A stretch of 38,455 nucleotides of DNA from IMG/VR virus record IMGVR_UViG_2713896790_000012; one strand, 5' to 3'. The notes under the pieces were generated by a model. That model was not told where the DNA came from. It made no database searches and worked only from the letters and a program-made list of their open reading frames with translations. Positions 18,770-38,455 of this stretch are shown piece by piece. Numbering within the stretch: position 1 is the first letter of the stretch; the number at the start of each line of letters is the position of its first letter. The stretch is from a virus. Lineage: Duplodnaviria > Heunggongvirae > Uroviricota > Caudoviricetes. Position numbers and translations under genes: made by a program.

Positions 18770-20245
18770 TTAGGAGCGCCAAAAAAAACCTGAAAACAAT
18801 ATAATAACAGGATAAATTTCAAGGCGACCAAGAATCATAGCTATGCACATTAAATATTTTGCAATGTCATTAAGCACTCCGAATGACGATGCAGTAGCCC
18901 CAAAACCTAATCCCATATTATTAATACATGCAGCCACTGTTGCAAATGATGTAAGAAAATCATATCCCATACCATTTAACACCAGTATAAAAAACACCGT
19001 GAAGAGAGTATAAAGAAAAAAGAAACTCCATACAGACCTCATTACACGATCTGTAACTATCTTCCCTCCTACATTTACACTCAACAACGCTCTGGGATGA
19101 GAAAGCTGGTTTATCTCGTGTTTGCTTTGTTTGAAAAGTATAAGAAATCGAAGTGACTTAATTCCACCACAAGTTGAACCTATACATCCCCCAAAGAAAC
19201 TTGACAACAGCAAAAACACTATCGTGTGCGTGGGCCAGTTTGCGTAATCCTGCGTAGCTAAACCATTATCAGTGAGCATGGAGCTGGCAAGAAAAAACGA
19301 ATGAATAAAACTTCCAGGCAAGTCATACATACCTATATGCCAGACCTGGAAAGAGGTAACAATGATCACCCCTAAGGCTATTAACAGAAAGAAACGAAGT
19401 TCAATATCTCTGATTAAAGGTTTTAACGTTTTCCTGCTAATAACAATATACCAAAGGGTGAAGTTGAAAGCCGATAGCAGGGAAAAAGAACCAGCCACCA
19501 GCTCAACCAAATAGTTATTAAAATATCCGATACTCTCGCTATGAGTTGAGAAACCACCAAGCGAAACTGTGGATATCCCGTGACAAATAGCATCAAACAA
19601 AGGCATTCCTGCAAGTCTATAACAGACAATACAAGCAATACCTAATAAAGAATAAGTTATCCAAAGTGTCCGTGACGTATCGGCCAGGCGGGGAGTAAGT
19701 TTGTCATCCTTAAATGGCCCTGGCATTTCTGACTGATAAAGCTTTGCACCACCAATACCCAATAATGGCAATACAGCAACCGCCAGAACAATAACTCCTA
19801 AGCCACCTATAAAATTTAACTGTGACCGATAGTACAAATATGCCCGAGGTAATGAACTAACATCATCAATTACAGTTGCTCCTGTTGTTGTTATTCCAGA
19901 AACCCCTTCAAATAGAGCATCAATAAACGTTAAATTAAGTTCTGAGTCAATCCATAAAGGGAATGCACTAATAACAGAAAACAAAATCCAAAACATTACA
20001 ATTATAATAAACCCATCACGGGTACGTAATTGAATACCAGATTTCTTAGTTGTATACCACGCTCCGCCACCAATGCAAAAAAATATAACGAAAGTTATAA
20101 AGAAAACGAACAGGCTTTTTTCTTTATAAAACAATGCTACAACCATTGGTGGCAACATTGAAAGACTATAGAGCCAAACCAGGAACCCACACATATGAGT
20201 AACAACTCTTACATGAGATGTATTCATATCTAAATATTCTTTCAA
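18770..20245 (-). CDS. trkG: TrkH/TrkG-family potassium uptake membrane protein
   Basis: 491-aa polytopic membrane protein with repeated selectivity-filter-like glycine motifs (GITTTGATV, GLGVIVLA, TVSLGGFST, NNMGLGFGA); AT-rich; same position as trkG in K-12 Rac. Confidence 0.8.
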   Translation of the reverse strand: MKEYLDMNTSHVRVVTHMCGFLVWLYSLSMLPPMVVALFYKEKSLFVFFITFVIFFCIGGGAWYTTKKSGIQLRTRDGFIIIVMFWILFSVISAFPLWIDSELNLTFIDALFEGVSGITTTGATVIDDVSSLPRAYLYYRSQLNFIGGLGVIVLAVAVLPLLGIGGAKLYQSEMPGPFKDDKLTPRLADTSRTLWITYSLLGIACIVCYRLAGMPLFDAICHGISTVSLGGFSTHSESIGYFNNYLVELVAGSFSLLSAFNFTLWYIVISRKTLKPLIRDIELRFFLLIALGVIIVTSFQVWHIGMYDLPGSFIHSFFLASSMLTDNGLATQDYANWPTHTIVFLLLSSFFGGCIGSTCGGIKSLRFLILFKQSKHEINQLSHPRALLSVNVGGKIVTDRVMRSVWSFFFLYTLFTVFFILVLNGMGYDFLTSFATVAACINNMGLGFGATASSFGVLNDIAKYLMCIAMILGRLEIYPVIILFSGFFWRS

Positions 20246-22396: not shown

Positions 22397-22471
<75 letters not shown>

Positions 22472-22474
22472 ATA

Positions 22475-22550
<76 letters not shown>

Positions 22551-24959: not shown

Positions 24960-25128
24960 CAGATTAATGTTAAGCGTCTTGCAGGACGCGTAATGTTAAC
25001 TGGGGCTTTTCTCTATCTGCCTTTTGGTGTTCATGCCTGAGGCAGATAGCCTCAAGCACCCGCAGCAATTTTACTTAACTCCCGCTACCTCGCCAATATG
25101 AAATCAATAAGAAAGGTGCTCCATAAAA

Positions 25129-25815
25129 TCACTCCTTCTCTTCTTTACCGTAGTGGAGTTGACCAATTTTGATAAGAGGGCGTCCCTGAGATTTGCGGTG
25201 TAGATTGGTATCGCGCAGAGAATACACACAGCCACAATATTCCTGCTGATAGAATTTTTCGCGCTTGCTGATTTCAATCATGCGGGACGAGCCGCCCTGC
25301 TTGCGCCAGTTATAATCCCAGTACACCATGCCCGGATAATGCGCGACGGCTCGCCGCCCACAGTCGTTAACCTGCTGCATATTTTTCCAGCGTGAAATGC
25401 CCAGTGAACTGCTGATCACACTGAAACCATTTTCAGCAGCGTACAGCGCTGTCCGCTCAAAACGCATGTCAAAACACATGGTACAACGGATCCCCCTCTC
25501 GGGCTCCCATTCCATTCCTTTGGCACGTTCAAACCAGTTGTCTGTGTCGTAATCAGCATCAATAAATGGCACGCCGTGTTGTTCAGCAAAGCGAATATTC
25601 TCATCCTTACGAATTAAATACTCTTTCTGAGGATGAATGTTCGGGTTGTAGAAAAAGATGGTATAGTCGATTCCCGAGGCCTGAAGCGCCTCCATCACTT
25701 CACCGGAACATGGAGCACAGCAAGAGTGCAGTAGTAGTTTGTTTGCCCCGTTTGGGAGCTCCAATTTAGGCCGTTTGAAATCAGCAATAGTCATAAATAT
25801 TTTTATTGGGGTCAT
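25129..25815 (-). CDS. QueH-like (DUF208) putative epoxyqueuosine reductase homolog
   Basis: N-terminal [14 protein letters not shown] and C-terminal YCGCVYSL cysteine motifs, about 220 aa, consistent with remembered DUF208/QueH pattern; start codon uncertain (25815 or 25794). Confidence 0.5.
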
Positions 25816-30106: not shown

Positions 30107-30277
30107 CATATACCTACCAACCCACCCCGCCCCACAGAACGCAGGGCAATACTTCGAGTTACCAGGCAGTGGTCAGGGGTTAAGTAGCCAGCCCGAGGCG
30201 TATGAACATGACGGCGGGATTCAAATTTTGCAGTGCAGCAGTTAGTTCCGCCACCCGGCGTTAAGGGGAGAGATAAG

Positions 30278-30412
30278 ATGGTGCATTACGAAGTAGTTCA
30301 GTATTTGATGGATTGTTGCGGCATCACTTACAGCCAGGCTGTACAGGCTCTACGCAGCAACGACTGGGATCTCTGGCAGGCAGAAGCCTCTATCCGTAAC
30401 AACAAGATGTGA
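30278..30412 (+). CDS. ydaG: Small protein YdaG-like (44 aa)
   Basis: ATG 30278 with AAGGGGAG SD; MVHYEVVQYLMDCCGITYSQAVQALRSNDWDLWQAEASIRNNKM*; below ORF-track cutoff. Confidence 0.5.
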   Translation: MVHYEVVQYLMDCCGITYSQAVQALRSNDWDLWQAEASIRNNKM

Positions 30413-30423
30413 GGGTTCCCAAA

Positions 30424-30579
30424 ATGCAAAAAATCGACCTCGGCAACAACGAATCCATAGTGTGTGGCGTGTTTCCCAACCAGGACGGTACGTTCACCGC
30501 GATGACGTATACAAAAAGCAAAACATTTAAAACCGAAACTGGTGCGCGCCGATGGTTGGAGAAGCACACAGTAAGCTAA
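30424..30579 (+). CDS. ydaF: Small protein YdaF-like (51 aa)
   Basis: MQKIDLGNNESIVCGVFPNQDGTFTAMTYTKSKTFKTETGARRWLEKHTVS*; read by hand. Confidence 0.5.
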   Translation: MQKIDLGNNESIVCGVFPNQDGTFTAMTYTKSKTFKTETGARRWLEKHTVS

Positions 30580-31064
30580 CGATTAAAACGTCTACTCCTG
30601 CTGTTCCAGAATAACTTCATAAAATGGGAGTATTTTTCGGTGACGAGATAATAAGAACAGTTTGCGCTATCACTCTGATGTTGAATGATGCCCTTCCGTT
30701 CTAATTTTTTCATAACCGGGTTACGGCAAGGAGAAGTGATAATAAGATTTCCTGTTTTAAGGAAATCTTTAAATACAGCGATTTCTTTCTCAGATAAACG
30801 AAGCAATACTCGTTGCTCTGGTAGTAATGAAAAATGCTTTTGAATATGTGCTCGCAATCTTGAGAAGGAAATGGCGACCACGAAAGAAAAGGCAAAAACG
30901 ATAATCTGAAAGAGCCAAGGTATTTCAGTATAAGCATTGAATGCGACAGTAAACTCTTTCGGTATCAGCCAGAGAGTGAGACCAAAAATGATAATCGTAT
31001 ACATAAGTCTTTCGAGTGGCTCGTTAGCAAAAAGTTTCAACAATGGAGTAAATACATCCAACAT
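30576..31064 (-). CDS. sieB: Superinfection exclusion protein B
   Basis: Start at internal ATG 31064 (MLDVFTPLLKLFANEPLERLMYTIIIFGLTLWLIPKEF...), 162 aa, two N-terminal TM segments; matches remembered SieB. Confidence 0.7.
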   Translation of the reverse strand: MLDVFTPLLKLFANEPLERLMYTIIIFGLTLWLIPKEFTVAFNAYTEIPWLFQIIVFAFSFVVAISFSRLRAHIQKHFSLLPEQRVLLRLSEKEIAVFKDFLKTGNLIITSPCRNPVMKKLERKGIIQHQSDSANCSYYLVTEKYSHFMKLFWNSRSRRFNR

Positions 31065-31494
31065 ATCAATAACTCTCAACTGTAAGGGTATTGAAATGTT
31101 AACACAAGCTCTCGCTGTAGGGGTATAGCCGAGACCACCGAAGCCCGGAGGTGGTGAAATAAAACTGGGCGCAACACGAAGGCGCATTTCCGATATCCAT
31201 AAAGAGTCGGTCTTGTCTGTTAAATTTAAATGGTGGGAGTGCGCCTCCGGTTGTAAATAACGACATTGCTGTGTGTAGTCTTGGCGGCATCAGTTTTTTC
31301 TTGAAGTTCGGCTGATGTCCGCCCTTTTTAAAGTGAATTTTGTGATGCGGTGAATGCGGCTAAGCGCACGCGGAACAGTTAAAAGCATCAGTGTTATGGG
31401 TGGATTATCCGGCGTTAATTGTTAACTGGTTAACGTCACCTGGAGGCACCAGGCACCGCATCAACAAAGTTCATTTGTGAAAATGGAGATAATT

Positions 31495-31716
31495 ATGATT
31501 GCTCATCACTTCGGAACTGATGAAATACCTCGTCAGTGTGTGACTCCTGGTGATTATGTTCTTCATAACGGCCGGACATATATTGCCTCGGCAAACAATA
31601 TTAAAAAGCGAAAGCTTTATATTCGTAACCTGACCACAAAAACATGCATTACTGACTGCATGATTAAAGTCTTCCTCGGTCGTGATGGTTTACCTGTAAA
31701 GGCGGAGTCATGGTGA
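31495..31716 (+). CDS. kilR: Cell-division inhibitor KilR
   Basis: [73 protein letters not shown] (73 aa) matches remembered K-12 KilR; SD GGAG upstream. Confidence 0.8.
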
Positions 31717-31886
31717 TGACTAAGAAAATAAAATGTGCTTACCACCTTTGCGATAAAGAAGTTAAAGAAAGCAAAAGCATTAAAAGACCACTTCATTTCA
31801 TGCGTGGAGTTATCCCAACGACGGAAATGAAAAAATATTGTAGCGAAATATGTGCCGAAAAAGACCAGATGGCACACGAACTTTAA
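31716..31886 (+). CDS. ydaE: Small Cys-rich protein YdaE-like (56 aa)
   Basis: ATG overlaps kilR stop (TGATG); [56 protein letters not shown]. Confidence 0.55.
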   Translation: MTKKIKCAYHLCDKEVKESKSIKRPLHFMRGVIPTTEMKKYCSEICAEKDQMAHEL

Positions 31887-31960
31887 TTAACTGACTATGC
31901 GAAACTGAATTTATGCCAGCAATGGCAGGGATTCGCTCAACCTTAATTAAGAAGAAAAAC

Positions 31961-32236
31961 ATGATTACCAGTTATGAAGCCACTGTTGTAACTACTGATG
32001 ACATTGTTCACGAAGTTAATCTGGAAGGAAAGCGTATTGGCTACGTGATTAAAACAGAAAATAAAGAAACCCCATTCACTGTAGTTGATATCGACGGTCC
32101 ATCAGGCAACGTTAAAACACTTCACGAAGGTGTCAAAAAAATGAGCCTAGTGCATATCGGAAAGAATCTGCCCGCAGAAAAAAAAGCCGGATTTCTGGCA
32201 ACTCTGATTGCAATGAAATTAAAAGGTGAAATCTGA
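31961..32236 (+). CDS. racC: RacC-like protein
   Basis: Start at internal ATG 31961 (MITSYEATVVTTDDIVHEVNLEGKRIGYVIKTENK...), 91 aa, upstream of recE. Confidence 0.6.
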   Translation: MITSYEATVVTTDDIVHEVNLEGKRIGYVIKTENKETPFTVVDIDGPSGNVKTLHEGVKKMSLVHIGKNLPAEKKAGFLATLIAMKLKGEI

Positions 32237-32337
32237 AAGAAATAGCCTGCGTATGGCGCAGGCTATGAACAGTGTGTATCCGGCAAGATCATTCACTGAA
32301 CAAAACGAATTTTAATCTGAGTTGAGGTTAAAAAACA

Positions 32338-35300
32338 ATGAGCACAAAACCACTCTTCCTGTTACGGAAAGCGAAAAAATCATCCGGTGAACCTGACGTC
32401 GTCCTGTGGGCAAGTGACGATTTTGAATCGACCTGTGCCACTCTGGACTACCAGATCGTTAAGTCAGGTAAAAAACTGAGCAGCTATTTTAAAGCTGTTG
32501 CCACGAATTTTCCTGTCGTTAATGACCTGCCCGCTGAAGGTGAGATCGATTTTACCTGGAGTGAACGCTATCAACTCAGCAAAGACTCCATGACATGGGA
32601 ACTAAAACCGGGAGCAGCACCAGACAACGCTCACTATCAAGGCAATACCAACGTCAACGGCGAAGACATGACTGAGATTGAGGAGAATATGCTACTCCCA
32701 ATTTCTGGCCAGGAACTGCCCATTCGTTGGCTTGCTCAACACGGCAGCGAAAAACCGGTAACGCACGTTTCACGCGGCGAACTCCAGGCATTACACATTG
32801 CACGGGCTGAAGAACTACCGGCTGTTACTGCCCTGGCTGTTTCCCACAAAACCAGCCTGCTCGACCCGCTGGAAATTCGCGATCTCCACAAACTGGTTCG
32901 TGACACTGACAAAGTTTTCCCTAATCCTGGTAATTCAGACTTGGGACTGTTAACTGCTTTTTTCGAAGTATACCTGAACGCTGACTACACCGATCGAGGA
33001 CTGCTGACAAAAGAGTGGATGAAGGGTAATCGTGTTTCACGCATCACTCGCACGGCTTCCGGTGCTAATGCTGGCGGCGGGAACCTCACCGATCGCGGCG
33101 AAGGTTTCGTCCACGATCTTACGTCACTGGCGCGCGACGTAGCCACTGGCGTACTGGCCCGTTCAATGGACGTGGACATCTATAACCTTCATCCGGCACA
33201 CGCTAAACGCATTGAGGAAATTATCGCTGAAAATAAACCGCCCTTTTCTGTTTTCCGCGACAAATTCATCACCATGCCTGGCGGGCTGGATTATTCTCGC
33301 GCCATCGTGGTTGCGTCCGTGAAAGAAGCACCAATTGGGATCGAGGTCATCCCCGCGCACGTCACAGAATATCTGAACAAAGTACTGACTGAAACCGATC
33401 ATGCCAACCCTGATCCGGAAATCGTGGATATTGCCTGCGGTCGCTCCTCTGCCCCGATGCCGCAGCGTGTAACAGAGGAGGGAAAACAGAATGATGAAGA
33501 AAAACCGCAACCATCTGGCGCAATGGCAGATGAACAGGCAACGGCTGAAACAGTGGAACCGGATGCAACTGAACATCATCAGGACACGCAGCCGCTGGAT
33601 GCTCAGTCACAGGTAAATTCTGTTGATGCAGACAAATTACTGGCTGCCTATCGCGGAGAATTTGTTGAAGGGATTAGCGACCCGAATGATCCGAAATGGG
33701 TTAAGGGGATCCAGACCCGCGATTCTGTGTACCAGCATCAGCCAAAAACGGAACAGAACGACCGAAAATCGGAACAAAACGGCCAAAATTCGCGACAAAA
33801 TGAACCAGAAGCGCAACAGGAACCGGAAAAAGTCTGCGCCGCCTGCGGTCAGACCGGCGGCAGTAACTGCCCTGACTGTGGCGCGGTGATGGGCGACGCA
33901 ACATACCAGGAAACATTCGATGAAGAGAATCAGGTTGAAGCTAAGGAAAAAGATCCGGTGGAAATGGAAGGCGCTGAACATCCGCACAATGAGAATGCTG
34001 GCAGCGATCCGCATCGTGATTGCAGTGATCAAACTGGTGAAGCGTCAGCTCCTGTAGCAACTGAAATCATGTGGCCGTCATATTTCGAGCCAGGCCGCTA
34101 TGAAAACCTCCCGAACGAGGTTTATCACTCCGCCAACGGAATAAGCAGCACGATGCTGAAGGATGCCCGTATCAGCCTGATGTATTACCACGGGCGGCAC
34201 ATTGCCGGAACTATTCCGAATGAGGAAAGTGATGCACTGCTGCGTGGGAGGATCATTCACAGCTATGTTCTGGAAACGGATAAATTCGCTGATGAATATG
34301 CCATTCCGGTACCGGTTCCTGAATATGTGGTTACTACTTCTAACGAACTGATCGCCATCATTAAAAAACACAATGCCAGTCTGCCAGCACTGATGACACC
34401 AGAGCAGATGAAAGAGTGGATCGAAAGCTACAACAGCACTCTTATACAGCCACTGTCTGTAAGTGCTGGGGCCGAAGAAACAGGCATCCTTTACGGTTCG
34501 CTTCCGGTGGAATTTCGGCGTATCCCTGAGGGGGAAAAACACACAGCATCAGCAATGAAAGCCTGTATTAAAGAATACAACGCAAGCCTCCCTCCTCTGT
34601 TGAAAACCAGTGGAGCACGGGAGCAACTTCTGGATCAAATTGAAACTGTAGACCCAGAACTGGCAAAAAAAGAACGTGCTAAATCTTTGCCTTACAACAT
34701 CAGTGGCACGAAAGAGCAATTAACCGAAATCGCACGGAAAATTCGCCCGGAACTGGTGACACTGGAGGACTGGCAAAAACGCCAGCAAGAAGAAAACGCC
34801 GGGAAAACGTTTATCAGTCCGGATATGTATGAACAGGCAAAAAATATTCACGCGGCACTGCAAAACAATACTGATGCGGCAAGGCTACTCAACCACCCGG
34901 ATCGCAAATCTGAAATCAGCTATTTCGGGTTTGATGAAGAAACCGGGCTGGAAATCAGGGTCCGTCCTGATATCGAAATCCGGCTGCCATACGAAAGCAT
35001 TTGCGCCGACGTGAAGTCAGTCAGCCTCGGTTATGTGCGGCAGGAACGACTTAAAGATCGCCTGCACCGTGAAATTATTGAGCGTGATTATCACCTCAGC
35101 GCCGCAATGTATTGCGATGTGGCAAACCTGGAAAAATTTTTCTGGATCTTCGTCAACAAAGATGCTGGCTATCACTGGGTGGCTGTCGTGGAAGCCTCGC
35201 AGGAACTCCTGGAACTTGGTCGACAGGAATATCGCCGGACGCTACGCCAGATAAACGAAGCCCTGGAGACAAACAACTGGCCAGCACCGATTACCGAAAG

Positions 35301-35361
35301 TTATACCGACGAATTAAACGACTTTGATCTTCGTCGTCTTGAAGCACTGCATCTGGCTTAA
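32338..35361 (+). CDS. recE: Exodeoxyribonuclease VIII (RecE-like), long 1007-aa variant
   Basis: N-terminus [26 protein letters not shown]... and C-terminal nuclease-type domain ([15 protein letters not shown]..., IRVRPDIEI..., ..[13 protein letters not shown]) fit remembered RecE; stop overlaps next gene start (TAATG). Confidence 0.7.
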
Positions 35362-36464
35362 TGGAGAACCTGACCATGCAAAATACCAATATCATCACGA
35401 CAGAGCAGACACCAAATACCATTTCTGCCAGTAACACTATTTTTAACGTTCAGGCGTTGACGCAACTTCAGGCAGTAGCCAGGTTGATGTCACAGGCCAC
35501 CGTCACAGTTCCCGATCACCTTCGCGGAAATCCTGCCGACTGCATGGCAATCATCATGCAAGCCATGCAATGGGGCATGAACCCCTACGCTGTGGCTCAG
35601 AAAACACACCTGGTAAACGGAGTTCTGGGTTATGAAGCACAACTGGTTAACGCTGTGATCTCTAGCTCAAGTGCAATTGTAGGCCGCTTCCATTACAAGT
35701 ACGAGGGAGACTGGGAGAAATGCTCTCGCACCCGAGTGGAGACCGTTAAGAAAACGGCCAAAGGAGGCGGAATCTATGAGAAAAAAGAAACGATCCCATG
35801 TTGGACCAGTGAAGATGAGTATGGTCTATCAGTTCGAGTTGGTGCAGTTCTTCGCGGTGAAAGTGAGATTACCTGGGGAGAACCGGTGTTTCTTTCCAGC
35901 GTGATTACGCGTAATTCTCCTTTATGGACCTCAAACCCGAAACAACAGCTCGCCTATCTGGCGTTGAAATACTGGGCTCGCCTTTATTGTCCTGACGTCA
36001 TCCTGGGCGTGTATACTCCGGACGAACTGGAAGAGCCACAGGAAAAAATCATCAATCCTGTGCCGGTACAGAATTATAGCGAGGTAAGCGAGCAGCGAAC
36101 AGAAACCATCGAACAGCGTATTGACGAAGCGTGGATTGATGAATTCCGGCAGCGTGTCGAAAGCGCGGCCACGACTGAGGAAACCACTGCATTACGCCAA
36201 GAGATAGAGGATCAGAAAAACCAGATCGGCGAATTCTTTGCCGAGCTTAAAGGAAAAGTGGTTCGGCGTCATCACCGTCTCAATGCTATTGCCAGTATCG
36301 AGAAGATGATAAATGACCTTCCTTCATCAGGTGATCCAGAAGCAGAACAAAAATTTACTGCTCTGGAAAATACGCTGAATGCTGCCCGGCCACATCTGGG
36401 TGAATTATATGAGGCGTATAAAACGACACTGACAGATATGAAACCAGAATATATCGGCTCCTGA
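35361..36464 (+). CDS. Single-strand annealing protein, RecT/Red-beta superfamily-like, partner of RecE
   Basis: 367 aa, translationally coupled to recE; ADCMAIIMQAMQWGMNPYAVAQKTHLVNGVLGYEAQLVNAV resembles the lambda Bet core (DAQFIALLIVANQYGLNP...); does not match the remembered K-12 RecT sequence. Confidence 0.45.
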   Translation: MENLTMQNTNIITTEQTPNTISASNTIFNVQALTQLQAVARLMSQATVTVPDHLRGNPADCMAIIMQAMQWGMNPYAVAQKTHLVNGVLGYEAQLVNAVISSSSAIVGRFHYKYEGDWEKCSRTRVETVKKTAKGGGIYEKKETIPCWTSEDEYGLSVRVGAVLRGESEITWGEPVFLSSVITRNSPLWTSNPKQQLAYLALKYWARLYCPDVILGVYTPDELEEPQEKIINPVPVQNYSEVSEQRTETIEQRIDEAWIDEFRQRVESAATTEETTALRQEIEDQKNQIGEFFAELKGKVVRRHHRLNAIASIEKMINDLPSSGDPEAEQKFTALENTLNAARPHLGELYEAYKTTLTDMKPEYIGS

Positions 36465-36527
36465 TATTGACTTTGGCGGTGTAGCCTCACCGCCATCACA
36501 AAATTTTATTTTATGAGAGAAAAGACA

Positions 36528-36722
36528 ATGCGGTATGAAAAAGTCAAACCATGCCCTTTTTGTGGTTGTCCATCAGTAACGGTGAAAGCCATTTCAGGAT
36601 ATTACCGCGCGAAGTGTAACGGATGCGAATCCCGAACCGGCTATGGTGGAAGTGAAAAAGAAGCACTCGAACGATGGAATAAACGAACCACTGGAAATAA
36701 TAATGGAGGTGTTCATGTATAA
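36528..36722 (+). CDS. ralR: Restriction alleviation protein Lar/RalR
   Basis: MRYEKVKPCPFCGCPSVTVKAISGYYRAKCNGCESRTGYGGSEKEALERWNKRTTGNNNGGVHV* matches remembered Lar; start chosen at second ATG (better SD). Confidence 0.8.
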   Translation: MRYEKVKPCPFCGCPSVTVKAISGYYRAKCNGCESRTGYGGSEKEALERWNKRTTGNNNGGVHV

Positions 36723-36903
36723 AATTACCGCCACTATTGAAAAGGAAGGTGGCACTCCTACTAACTGGACAAGGTACTCAAAAACAAAATTAACCAAATC
36801 AGAATGCGAAAAAATGCTCTCAGGTAAAAAAGAAGCAGGCGTTTCCAGAGAGCAGAAAGTAAAACTGATAAATTTTAATTGCGAGAAACTTCAGTCGTCG
36901 TGA
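36715..36903 (+). CDS. ydaC: YdaC-like small protein
   Basis: MYKITATIEKEGGTPTNWTRYSKTKLTKSECEKMLSGKKEAGVSREQKVKLINFNCEKLQSS*; ATG overlaps ralR 3' end by 8 nt; an upstream alternative start exists at 36643. Confidence 0.5.
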   Translation: MYKITATIEKEGGTPTNWTRYSKTKLTKSECEKMLSGKKEAGVSREQKVKLINFNCEKLQSS

Positions 36904-37002
36904 ATTGCATTGTATTCAAATTAAAACTTCATAGCTGATTATTAATAATCAACATCGGGCGTCAATTTCAGTCTAACATTGGCGCCTGCCAGAGGTGATG
37001 CG

Positions 37003-37218
37003 ATGGCACAAGTAATCTTTAATGAAGAGTGGATGGTTGAATACGGCCTGATGCTTCGCACTGGTCTGGGGGCCAGACAAATTGAAGCATACCGTCAGAA
37101 CTGTTGGGAGGAAGGCTTCCACTTCAAACGAGTATCTCCTTTAGGGAAACCAGACAGTAAGCGAGGGATTATCTGGTACAACTATCCAAAGATAAATCAG
37201 TTTATCAAAGACTCATGA
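37003..37218 (+). CDS. xisR: Excisionase
   Basis: Start at ATG 37003 with [80 protein letters not shown] matches remembered Rac XisR; immediately upstream of int. Confidence 0.75.
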
Positions 37219-37219
37219 T

Positions 37220-38455
37220 ATGTCTAAATTACCAACAGGTGTCGAGATTCGAGGTAAATACATTCGCATCTGGTTCATGTTTCGAGGAAAACGATGTCGG
37301 GAAACATTGAAAGGCTGGGAGGTTACTAACAGTAACATTAAAAAGGCCGGGAATTTAAGAGCGTTGATAGTTCATGAAATCAACTCCGGTGAATTTGAGT
37401 ATTTAAGACGTTTTCCCCAGTCCAGCACTGGGGCAAAAATGGTGACAACGAGGGTCATAAAAACGTTCGGGGAGCTTTGTGATATCTGGACAAAAATTAA
37501 AGAGACAGAGTTAACAACAAACACAATGAAGAAAACGAAATCACAATTAAAAACACTCAGGATAATAATTTGTGAGAGTACCCCAATATCACATATTCGT
37601 TATAGCGATATCTTAAACTACCGGAATGAACTGCTGCATGGAGAAACACTTTACCTAGATAATCCAAGATCCAACAAAAAAGGAAGAACCGTGCGCACAG
37701 TTGATAACTATATCGCCCTGCTCTGTTCGTTGTTACGTTTTGCGTATCAGTCGGGATTTATATCAACCAAACCATTTGAAGGAGTAAAAAAATTACAGCG
37801 AAACAGAATAAAGCCTGATCCGTTATCTAAAACAGAATTCAATGCATTAATGGAAAGTGAAAAAGGACAGAGCCAGAACTTGTGGAAATTTGCCGTTTAC
37901 TCCGGGCTTCGTCACGGGGAACTGGCAGCTCTGGCGTGGGAGGATGTGGATTTCGAGAAGGGAATTGTGAATGTCAGAAGAAACCTGACGATACTTGATA
38001 TGTTCGGTCCCCCAAAAACAAATGCGGGGATCCGGACGGTAACACTACTACAGCCAGCTCTTGAAGCACTGAAGGAGCAATACAAACTGACCGGGCATCA
38101 TCGCAAAAGCGAAATCACTTTTTATCATCGGGAGTACGGCAGAACCGAAAAGCACAAACTGCATTTTGTTTTCATGCCCAGGATGTGTAACGGAAAACAG
38201 AAACCTTATTACTCGGTAAGCAGTTTGGGTGCGAGATGGAATGCAGCAGTAAAACGTGCTGGTATTCGCCGCCGTAATCCGTACCATACGCGACATACTT
38301 TTGCCTGCTGGCTGTTGACGGCAGGAGCGAACCCGGCATTTATAGCCAGCCAGATGGGGCATGAAACTGCGCAGATGGTGTATGAAATTTACGGTATGTG
38401 GATTGATGACATGAACGACGAACAGGTAGCTATGTTGAATGCGCGGTTATCGTAG
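37220..38455 (+). CDS. intR: Tyrosine-type site-specific integrase
   Basis: 411 aa; C-terminal catalytic region with R...HTRHT...Y-type motifs (NPYHTRHTFACWLLTAGANPAFIASQMGHETAQMVYEIY); stop codon TAG is the last 3 bases of the window. Confidence 0.85.
   Translation: MSKLPTGVEIRGKYIRIWFMFRGKRCRETLKGWEVTNSNIKKAGNLRALIVHEINSGEFEYLRRFPQSSTGAKMVTTRVIKTFGELCDIWTKIKETELTTNTMKKTKSQLKTLRIIICESTPISHIRYSDILNYRNELLHGETLYLDNPRSNKKGRTVRTVDNYIALLCSLLRFAYQSGFISTKPFEGVKKLQRNRIKPDPLSKTEFNALMESEKGQSQNLWKFAVYSGLRHGELAALAWEDVDFEKGIVNVRRNLTILDMFGPPKTNAGIRTVTLLQPALEALKEQYKLTGHHRKSEITFYHREYGRTEKHKLHFVFMPRMCNGKQKPYYSVSSLGARWNAAVKRAGIRRRNPYHTRHTFACWLLTAGANPAFIASQMGHETAQMVYEIYGMWIDDMNDEQVAMLNARLS

Follow-up and report, generated by a model that had tools for sequence, protein, structure and literature searches.

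A mosaic recE gene and its neighboring annealase gene in a probable Rac-family prophage recombination module

Results

The recE gene and the downstream annealase gene

The subject of this analysis is the recE gene, encoding exodeoxyribonuclease VIII, and the adjoining annealase gene at positions 32338–36464 of the tailed-virus record IMGVR_UViG_2713896790_000012 (Duplodnaviria; Heunggongvirae; Uroviricota; Caudoviricetes), a stretch of 38,455 nucleotides (nt) that is referred to here in its entirety as the window. A sequence-only reading of this DNA had described the pair as a long RecE variant carrying a cysteine-rich insert, together with an annealing protein that does not resemble RecT of Escherichia coli K-12. 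The features of the two genes, with protein positions in amino acids (aa), are as follows.

32338–35361, plus strand: recE (exodeoxyribonuclease VIII), a mosaic gene; open reading frame (ORF) of 1007 aa with Pfam Exonuc_VIII and DUF3799/PDDEXK matches and a match to NCBIfam NF007259
32338–33629, plus strand: K-12-like N-terminal region of recE (aa 1–431), 97.4% identical in DNA to recE of the K-12 Rac prophage
33640–33705, plus strand: conserved linker motif LAAxRGExVxGISDPxDPKWVK (aa 435–456), with 18 of 22 positions invariant in 8 of 8 RecE-like proteins
33838–33882, plus strand: zinc-ribbon-like motif CxxC-x7-CxxC (C501, C504, C512, C515), from the alignment of RecE-like proteins
34057–36473, plus strand: swapped 2.4-kb cassette made up of the recE nuclease domain and the annealase gene, without blastn similarity to K-12 Rac
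34066–35358, plus strand: Gifsy-type PD-(D/E)XK nuclease domain of RecE (aa 577–1007)
34327–34803, plus strand: helical repeat insert of about 160 aa, SAP/HeH-like (aa 664–822), from the predicted structure and internal repeats
34969–35016, plus strand: catalytic motif D878 ... D891-V-K893, aligning with D748 ... D759-V-K761 of K-12 RecE
35361–36464, plus strand: annealase of the RecT/Redβ superfamily, Gifsy/"enterohemolysin" clade, 367 aa (from ATG 35361) or 362 aa (from ATG 35376); PF03837, phrog_561
36117–36461, plus strand: conserved helical C-terminal domain of the annealase (aa 253–367), ending in DMKPEY; conserved across 20 homologs, with predicted local distance difference test (pLDDT) scores of 85–90

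Both ORFs were found with the lengths given by the sequence-only reading (1007 aa at 32338–35361 and 367 aa at 35361–36464, both on the plus strand), and the 866 aa that it gave for K-12 RecE agrees with the protein fetched from the MG1655 Rac region, where RecT is 269 aa long. Within the window RecE, Exonuc_VIII (PF06630) covers aa 2–178 (E=5.5e-95) and DUF3799/PDDEXK covers aa 819–983. The whole protein scores 1412 bits against the NCBIfam exoVIII equivalog model NF007259, for which the cutoff is 1269 bits and K-12 RecE scores 1830 bits, and the top-scoring stretch is the N-terminal region at aa 1–431. A BLASTP comparison with K-12 RecE showed near identity across the N-terminal part and the linker, while from aa ~577 onward identity falls to ~29% and the alignment becomes fragmentary. 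The function of the RecE N-terminal domain is described in a review as unknown (PMC11611040).

The window RecE exceeds K-12 RecE by 141 aa, a difference composed of a loss of 24 aa in the linker, a gain of 7 aa in a Q/N-rich stretch, and a gain of 158 aa in the nuclease domain. The nuclease domain measures 431 aa in the window protein and 273 aa in K-12 RecE, and the added length comes from this larger domain with its repeat insert of about 160 aa.

The loss in the linker corresponds to a 72-nt in-frame deletion at recE aa 431/432 (window 33615–33629), and the deleted segment is kept in K-12, RM11911, and Rac-SA53. The two blastn alignments to K-12 Rac that meet at the deletion point overlap there by 15 nt, which suggests a repeat-mediated deletion.

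A 2.4-kb cassette replaces the K-12 nuclease domain and recT

Comparison of the window with K-12 Rac by blastn divides the region into four segments.

30115–33629: 95.7% identity to K-12 Rac
33615–34056: 82% identity to K-12 Rac
34057–36473: no similarity to K-12 Rac
36474–38455: 96% identity to K-12 Rac

The unmatched cassette begins at RecE aa ~574 and ends 9 nt beyond the stop codon of the annealase gene, and only the nuclease domain and the annealase lie inside it. The nuclease domain of K-12 RecE has a published start at residue 564 (PMC11611040), which places the left joint of the cassette near a known domain boundary of RecE.

Frequencies were counted over 5426 complete E. coli genomes. 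The cassette was found in 195 of these, 31 of them at ≥80% coverage, and the K-12-type nuclease plus recT cassette was found in 1751. Relatives of the cassette at ~70% DNA identity include Gifsy-1, Gifsy-2, SPN3UB, mEp237, and HK225.

The nuclease domain and its repeat insert

The PD-(D/E)XK core fold of the nuclease domain matches that of RecE. The stretch at aa 664–822 is missing in K-12 RecE and found in Gifsy-2, and it was modeled by AlphaFold2 (AF2) as three helix-loop-helix pairs with pLDDT values of 85–90. The pairs are internally repetitive: a profile of the first repeat finds the second at 24.8 bits, as compared with at most 2.9 bits in 300 shuffles, and the third repeat matches aa 755–775 at 9.8 bits, as compared with at most 3.6 bits in shuffles. 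The likeness of the insert to SAP/HeH motifs is one of resemblance and not of membership, drawn from the predicted helix pairs, the repeats, and inspection of the motif, with units such as ...SG.REQLL..I; among the curated models of the Pfam HeH clan the best match was Ish1 (E=0.13), scoring 13 bits against a cutoff of 26.6. Motifs of the SAP/HeH class typically bind nucleic acids, and the insert is probably an accessory DNA-binding element.

A further-reaching role for the insert has to be weighed at this point, namely that it alters the nuclease, for example by conferring structure-specific endonuclease activity or another polarity, in which case the module would not carry out simple RecET-like resection and annealing. 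In support of such a role, the insert is of considerable size and repetitive within itself, it is predicted with confidence, the Gifsy clade conserves it, and nucleic-acid binding is generally known for the fold class that it resembles. The SAP/HeH assignment is itself sub-threshold, however, the core fold and the catalytic motif match RecE, and the Gifsy recET genes, which carry the same insert, behave genetically like recET (PMC3121763). We therefore consider an altered nuclease improbable.

Classification and domain structure of the annealase

The stop codon of recE overlaps the annealase ATG at 35361 as TAATG. A GGAG sequence is positioned 9 nt before the ATG at 35376, and the RefSeq homolog and most relatives use this same start; on these two grounds the true start is probably ATG 35376, which gives a protein of 362 aa. 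A search for RNA structure at the recE/annealase junction found none (z=+1.16).

The Pfam model PF03837 ("RecT") matches aa 41–227 of the annealase at E=4e-37, with 128 bits against a cutoff of 24. The same model also matches Gifsy-2 RecT and, at E=2.7e-33, λ Bet, and the Bet and RecT types are therefore not separated by Pfam. Finer classification by hidden Markov models places the protein in the RecT/Redβ superfamily and outside the NCBIfam RecT and bet_lambda models: it gave no match at E≤0.01 to the RecT models TIGR00616 and NF007351, against which K-12 RecT scores 416 and 465 bits, and no match at E≤0.01 to TIGR01913 (bet_lambda). It belongs to phrog_561 (E=2e-153), and K-12 RecT belongs to phrog_148. 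No significant BLASTP alignment with K-12 RecT was obtained (best E=39). The proposal that the annealing protein differs from K-12 RecT is thus upheld by BLASTP, PHROG, and NCBIfam alike, and the protein is not an ordinary RecT ortholog.

The proposed Bet-like core holds in part. In pairwise alignment the protein resembles λ Bet weakly (22% identity, E=3e-5), yet more than it resembles K-12 RecT, and hhalign ranks the two in the same order (E=0.0018 over 186 columns for Bet, E=0.54 for K-12 RecT), the profile being of low diversity (Neff 1.8) and informative for relative ranking only; the failure to match the bet_lambda model is the part that does not fit. To Gifsy-2 RecT the annealase is 61% identical over 371 columns at full length. 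The family is large (6528 matches) and widespread in Enterobacterales, and its members are mostly named RecT family recombinase or "enterohemolysin," the latter name being a frequent mislabel. Iyer, Koonin and Aravind reportedly defined an EHAP1 family in 2002. We infer that the clade corresponds to this family from the shared "enterohemolysin" name and the description in PMC8093625, the label being second-hand.

The AF2 model of the annealase consists of a mixed α/β core at aa ~30–210, an acidic linker of ~40 aa that is predicted with low confidence (aa 212–252), and a helical domain of ~110 aa (aa 256–364; pLDDT ~85–90). What had been described as a long acidic C-terminal tail is thus this acidic linker followed by a conserved and confidently predicted helical domain. 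A phmmer search of PDB sequences with the annealase returned no matches, and Pfam searches at permissive E-values with the isolated annealase C-terminal domain, the nuclease insert, and the Cys linker returned sub-threshold, non-specific matches only. The C-terminal domain of Redβ binds λ Exo and SSB, and RecE and RecT interact specifically (PMC9772228 and its references 2 and 35). By analogy with Redβ, the annealase C-terminal domain is likely to be a partner-binding element.

The cysteine motif and the conserved linker

The linker of RecE is acidic and Q-rich, as had been proposed: aa 360–576 contain 21.7% D+E and 9.7% Q, compared with 1.7% Q in aa 1–359. The 18-aa peptide bearing the Cys motif is encoded at nt 33832–33885, and its spacing is C501-x2-C504-x7-C512-x2-C515. 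The existence of the motif and its two C-x2-C pairs are as the sequence-only reading gave them; the central spacing is seven residues and not eight. A pattern of the type CxxC-x(4–20)-CxxC arises in 2 of 20,000 shuffles of RecE, which has 10 Cys in total, and this rarity together with conservation in homologs argues that the four-Cys pattern is not due to chance. Zinc-ribbon models in Pfam match the Cys linker below threshold in every case (DZR, E=0.028; ZnF_RZ, 0.064; Zn_ribbon_3, 0.97).

The linker and Cys motif were compared across eight aligned RecE-like proteins, among them the window RecE and those of K-12, Gifsy-2, phage Evi, and Stx phage 75/02. Seven of the eight retain the complete set of four Cys, the exception being the Gifsy-2 protein, which lacks the motif. 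K-12 RecE has the same motif at the homologous position, as C517-x2-C520-x7-C528-x2-C531 (CNACGQTGGDNCPDCG), from which it follows that the motif is not an insert, contrary to the earlier description. A RecE variant with a Cys insert was accordingly ruled out as a candidate by the K-12 RecE alignment.

The broader proposal, of a new long RecE with an acquired zinc-ribbon insert that is combined in an unrecognized way with a λ Bet-like annealase, draws on true observations, in that RecE is longer than its K-12 counterpart and bears the four-Cys motif, and the annealase is weakly nearer to Bet than to K-12 RecT. Against it, the motif is present in K-12 RecE and most RecE-like proteins; the DNA of the Cys-motif linker occurs in 4718 of the 5426 E. 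coli genomes, with a median of 2 copies and up to 8; the added length sits in the nuclease domain; the annealase fails TIGR01913 and is close to Gifsy-2 RecT; and the same cassette has already been deposited and annotated. We regard this proposal as very improbable indeed.

The near invariance of the linker motif at aa 435–456 spans Gifsy-2, a DnaQ-type protein of phage Evi, and a nuclease-less protein of Stx phage 75/02. The modules downstream of it differ among the aligned proteins, being a K-12-type nuclease, a Gifsy-type nuclease, a DnaQ-like exonuclease, or none. The phage Evi protein carries an Rv2179c/DnaQ-like 3′-5′ exonuclease (PF16473, E=7e-69), and in Stx phage 75/02 the genes gam, bet, and exo come after that of a 682-aa RecE-like protein without a nuclease. 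A survey published in 2025 distinguishes, among the Rec modules of lambdoid phages, Rac-type and Gifsy-1-type RecE, DnaQ-like nucleases, and a nuclease-less "RecE-2," and both the shuffling of lambdoid Rec modules and the "shuffling of partner interaction domains" are already described there (PMC12315714). Our literature search found no paper describing a Cys or zinc motif of RecE or the invariant linker motif.

A speculative and rather doubtful extension of these observations is that the acidic linker of RecE is a portable, zinc-binding adaptor of lambdoid phages that is joined interchangeably to a K-12-type, Gifsy-type, or DnaQ-like nuclease or to none. The linker could be the element that lets full-length RecE enhance linear-linear recombination, for instance as a tether between the nuclease and a host factor or a second DNA end. 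The only thread in this analysis that is even modestly novel is the undescribed conserved linker motif with the zinc-ribbon-like element, found in nearly all RecE-like proteins; the conserved Cys and linker motifs provide testable handles on the function of the N-terminal two-thirds of RecE.

Discussion

A probable Gifsy-type recombination module behind a K-12-type RecE N terminus

We consider it highly probable that this locus serves a lambdoid prophage of the Rac family as its recombination module, in which a K-12-type RecE N terminus is joined in-frame to a Gifsy-type nuclease and annealase cassette, and that the two proteins form a conventional pair of 5′→3′ exonuclease and annealing recombinase. 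The PD-(D/E)XK domain, with its D...DxK motif intact, would resect double-stranded DNA ends in the 5′→3′ direction, and the RecT/Redβ-superfamily annealase would then coat the 3′ single strand and anneal it to complementary DNA. Both host SSB and the cognate nuclease are probable contacts of the helical domain at the C terminus of the annealase, and such contact with the nuclease would explain why the nuclease domain and the annealase travel together.

Several points weigh against parts of this interpretation. The AF2 model of the nuclease domain is of moderate quality, with a mean pLDDT of 70, and its first 53 and last 29 residues are unreliable. The annealase model, with a mean pLDDT of 68, is likewise of moderate quality, and a Foldseek search of the PDB with this multi-domain, moderately confident model returned nothing at E≤0.001, an outcome that carries no weight in either direction; the fold assignment of the annealase consequently rests on sequence profiles. 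That its C-terminal domain touches the nuclease is proposed by analogy and is not a result. As to activity in the host, recET is normally silent in a lysogen. Finally, in E. coli ETEC1716 and FDAARGOS_946 the nuclease domain is kept, as are the two ends of the annealase gene, while ~280 nt of its core (window 35661–35942) have been exchanged for a diverged sequence, the resulting annealase being a protein of 350 aa, and this replacement means that the cassette is not indivisible.

The notion of the cassette as a strictly co-moving unit was dropped, the mosaicism inside the annealase gene (nt 35661–35942) making the picture patchier.

The pair is distinct from that of K-12, as the earlier suggestion of an alternative exonuclease/annealase pairing implied, but it is not new, being a Gifsy-type RecET module annotated in RefSeq and GenBank. 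The type of module, like the sequence itself and its annotation, was already in the public record, and the recE/annealase pair is an already catalogued allele of this known module. What the locus offers is a natural and compact example of the RecE nuclease domain and the annealase being exchanged together, with the joint near a domain boundary. Such a joint exchange fits the requirement of recombineering that exonuclease and annealase be matched to each other, and the Gifsy-type pair is a legitimate, though not new, candidate for recombineering trials in Enterobacteriaceae.

Prophage context and neighboring genes

Upstream of recE lies sieB, followed by ORFs positioned as kilR, ydaE, and racC; downstream of the annealase are ralR/RalA and then the excisionase (xis) and integrase (int) genes. 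Two of these neighbors were located as follows.

36513–36722, plus strand: ralR/Lar restriction-alleviation toxin gene (PF14354), directly after the annealase as in K-12 Rac
36721–36899, minus strand: RalA antisense small RNA (RF02694, 215 bits)

Genes for terminase, portal, capsid, and tape-measure proteins are also present in the window, and the prophage accordingly looks complete. This bears on whether the module might be a decayed remnant, that is, a non-functional pair in a cryptic prophage whose mosaic recE arose by illegitimate recombination and does not encode a working enzyme. K-12 Rac is cryptic and its recET silent, and the window recE has the 72-nt in-frame linker deletion relative to its relatives, both of which would suit such a view. 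On the other side, neither ORF is interrupted and the two overlap as TAATG, the catalytic residues are retained, the architecture is kept at 97–99% identity in dozens of genomes and one deposited phage genome, the genes named above are those of a complete-looking prophage, and Gifsy homologs of the same architecture are functional (PMC3121763). Decay is accordingly an unlikely account, and the interpretation of the locus as a Gifsy-type module with conventional activities is preferred.

Several other genes of the window were noted in passing. A homolog of TET-associated glycosyltransferases (16916–17869, minus strand; PF20691, E=6e-35) adjoins a ParB_N-like gene (17841–18632, minus strand), and this pair, which has the small terminase gene on one side and a trkG-like gene on the other, could be DNA-modification cargo. 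The trkG-like gene (18770–20245, minus strand), which lies in a stretch of low GC content (39%), encodes a potassium transporter of the TrkH family (PF02386, E=2e-143) and is similar to trkG, a cargo gene of K-12 Rac. A homolog of QueH, an epoxyqueuosine reductase, is encoded at 25129–25815 on the minus strand (PF02677, E=2e-65), and two tRNA genes lie at 22400–22471 and 22478–22550 (minus strand). An Rfam match to the sok antitoxin RNA at 24961–25061 (minus strand; 60.9 bits against a gathering score of 59) suggests a hok/sok-like type I toxin-antitoxin locus.

Comparison with known recombination systems

The closest known relatives are the deposited genome of Escherichia phage Rac-SA53 (KU052037.1), in which the cassette is 99.4% identical in DNA and annotated as recE/recT, and RM11911 and other E. 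coli alleles, at ~97% DNA identity (WP_042973008.1 and WP_021529594.1). RefSeq annotates the RM11911-type alleles as "exodeoxyribonuclease VIII" and "RecT family recombinase." Rac-SA53 and RM11911 also share with the window the gene order kilR, ydaE, racC, recE, recT, ralR, xis, int. Their RecE proteins differ from that of the window in length (1048 and 1024 aa versus 1007 aa), through indels and replacements that affect the linker and the N-terminal part, and both have the 24-aa linker segment that is missing from the window RecE.

The Salmonella phages Gifsy-1 and Gifsy-2 share the overall architecture, with an Exonuc_VIII N terminus, a PDDEXK C terminus containing the ~160-aa insert, and an adjacent RecT of ~369 aa with the same C-terminal domain. 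The C terminus of Gifsy-2 RecE is collinear with the window nuclease domain, insert included, and the nuclease domain of the Gifsy-1 RecE entries is 52% identical to that of the window. Gifsy-2 RecE differs in being without the CxxC-x7-CxxC motif and in its N-terminal part and linker, which are far more diverged (41% identity overall). When activated by mutation, the Gifsy recET orthologs suppress recombination defects (PMC3121763).

K-12 Rac belongs to the same prophage family and resembles the window in its flanking genes and in the N-terminal ~575 aa of RecE, including the Cys motif, and the two RecE proteins agree in nuclease fold and in the catalytic D...DxK motif. The K-12 nuclease domain, however, is only ~29% identical, in fragments, and is 158 aa shorter; K-12 RecT, at 269 aa, has no detectable pairwise similarity to the window annealase and falls in another PHROG and another NCBIfam subfamily.

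The λ Exo/Bet pair follows the same two-component logic, in which a 5′→3′ exonuclease works with a PF03837 annealase that has a partner-binding C-terminal domain. The window nuclease is RecE-type, without significant similarity to λ Exo, and the window module is without gam. The order of the genes is also reversed: the nuclease gene precedes the annealase gene in the window, whereas λ transcribes bet and then exo.

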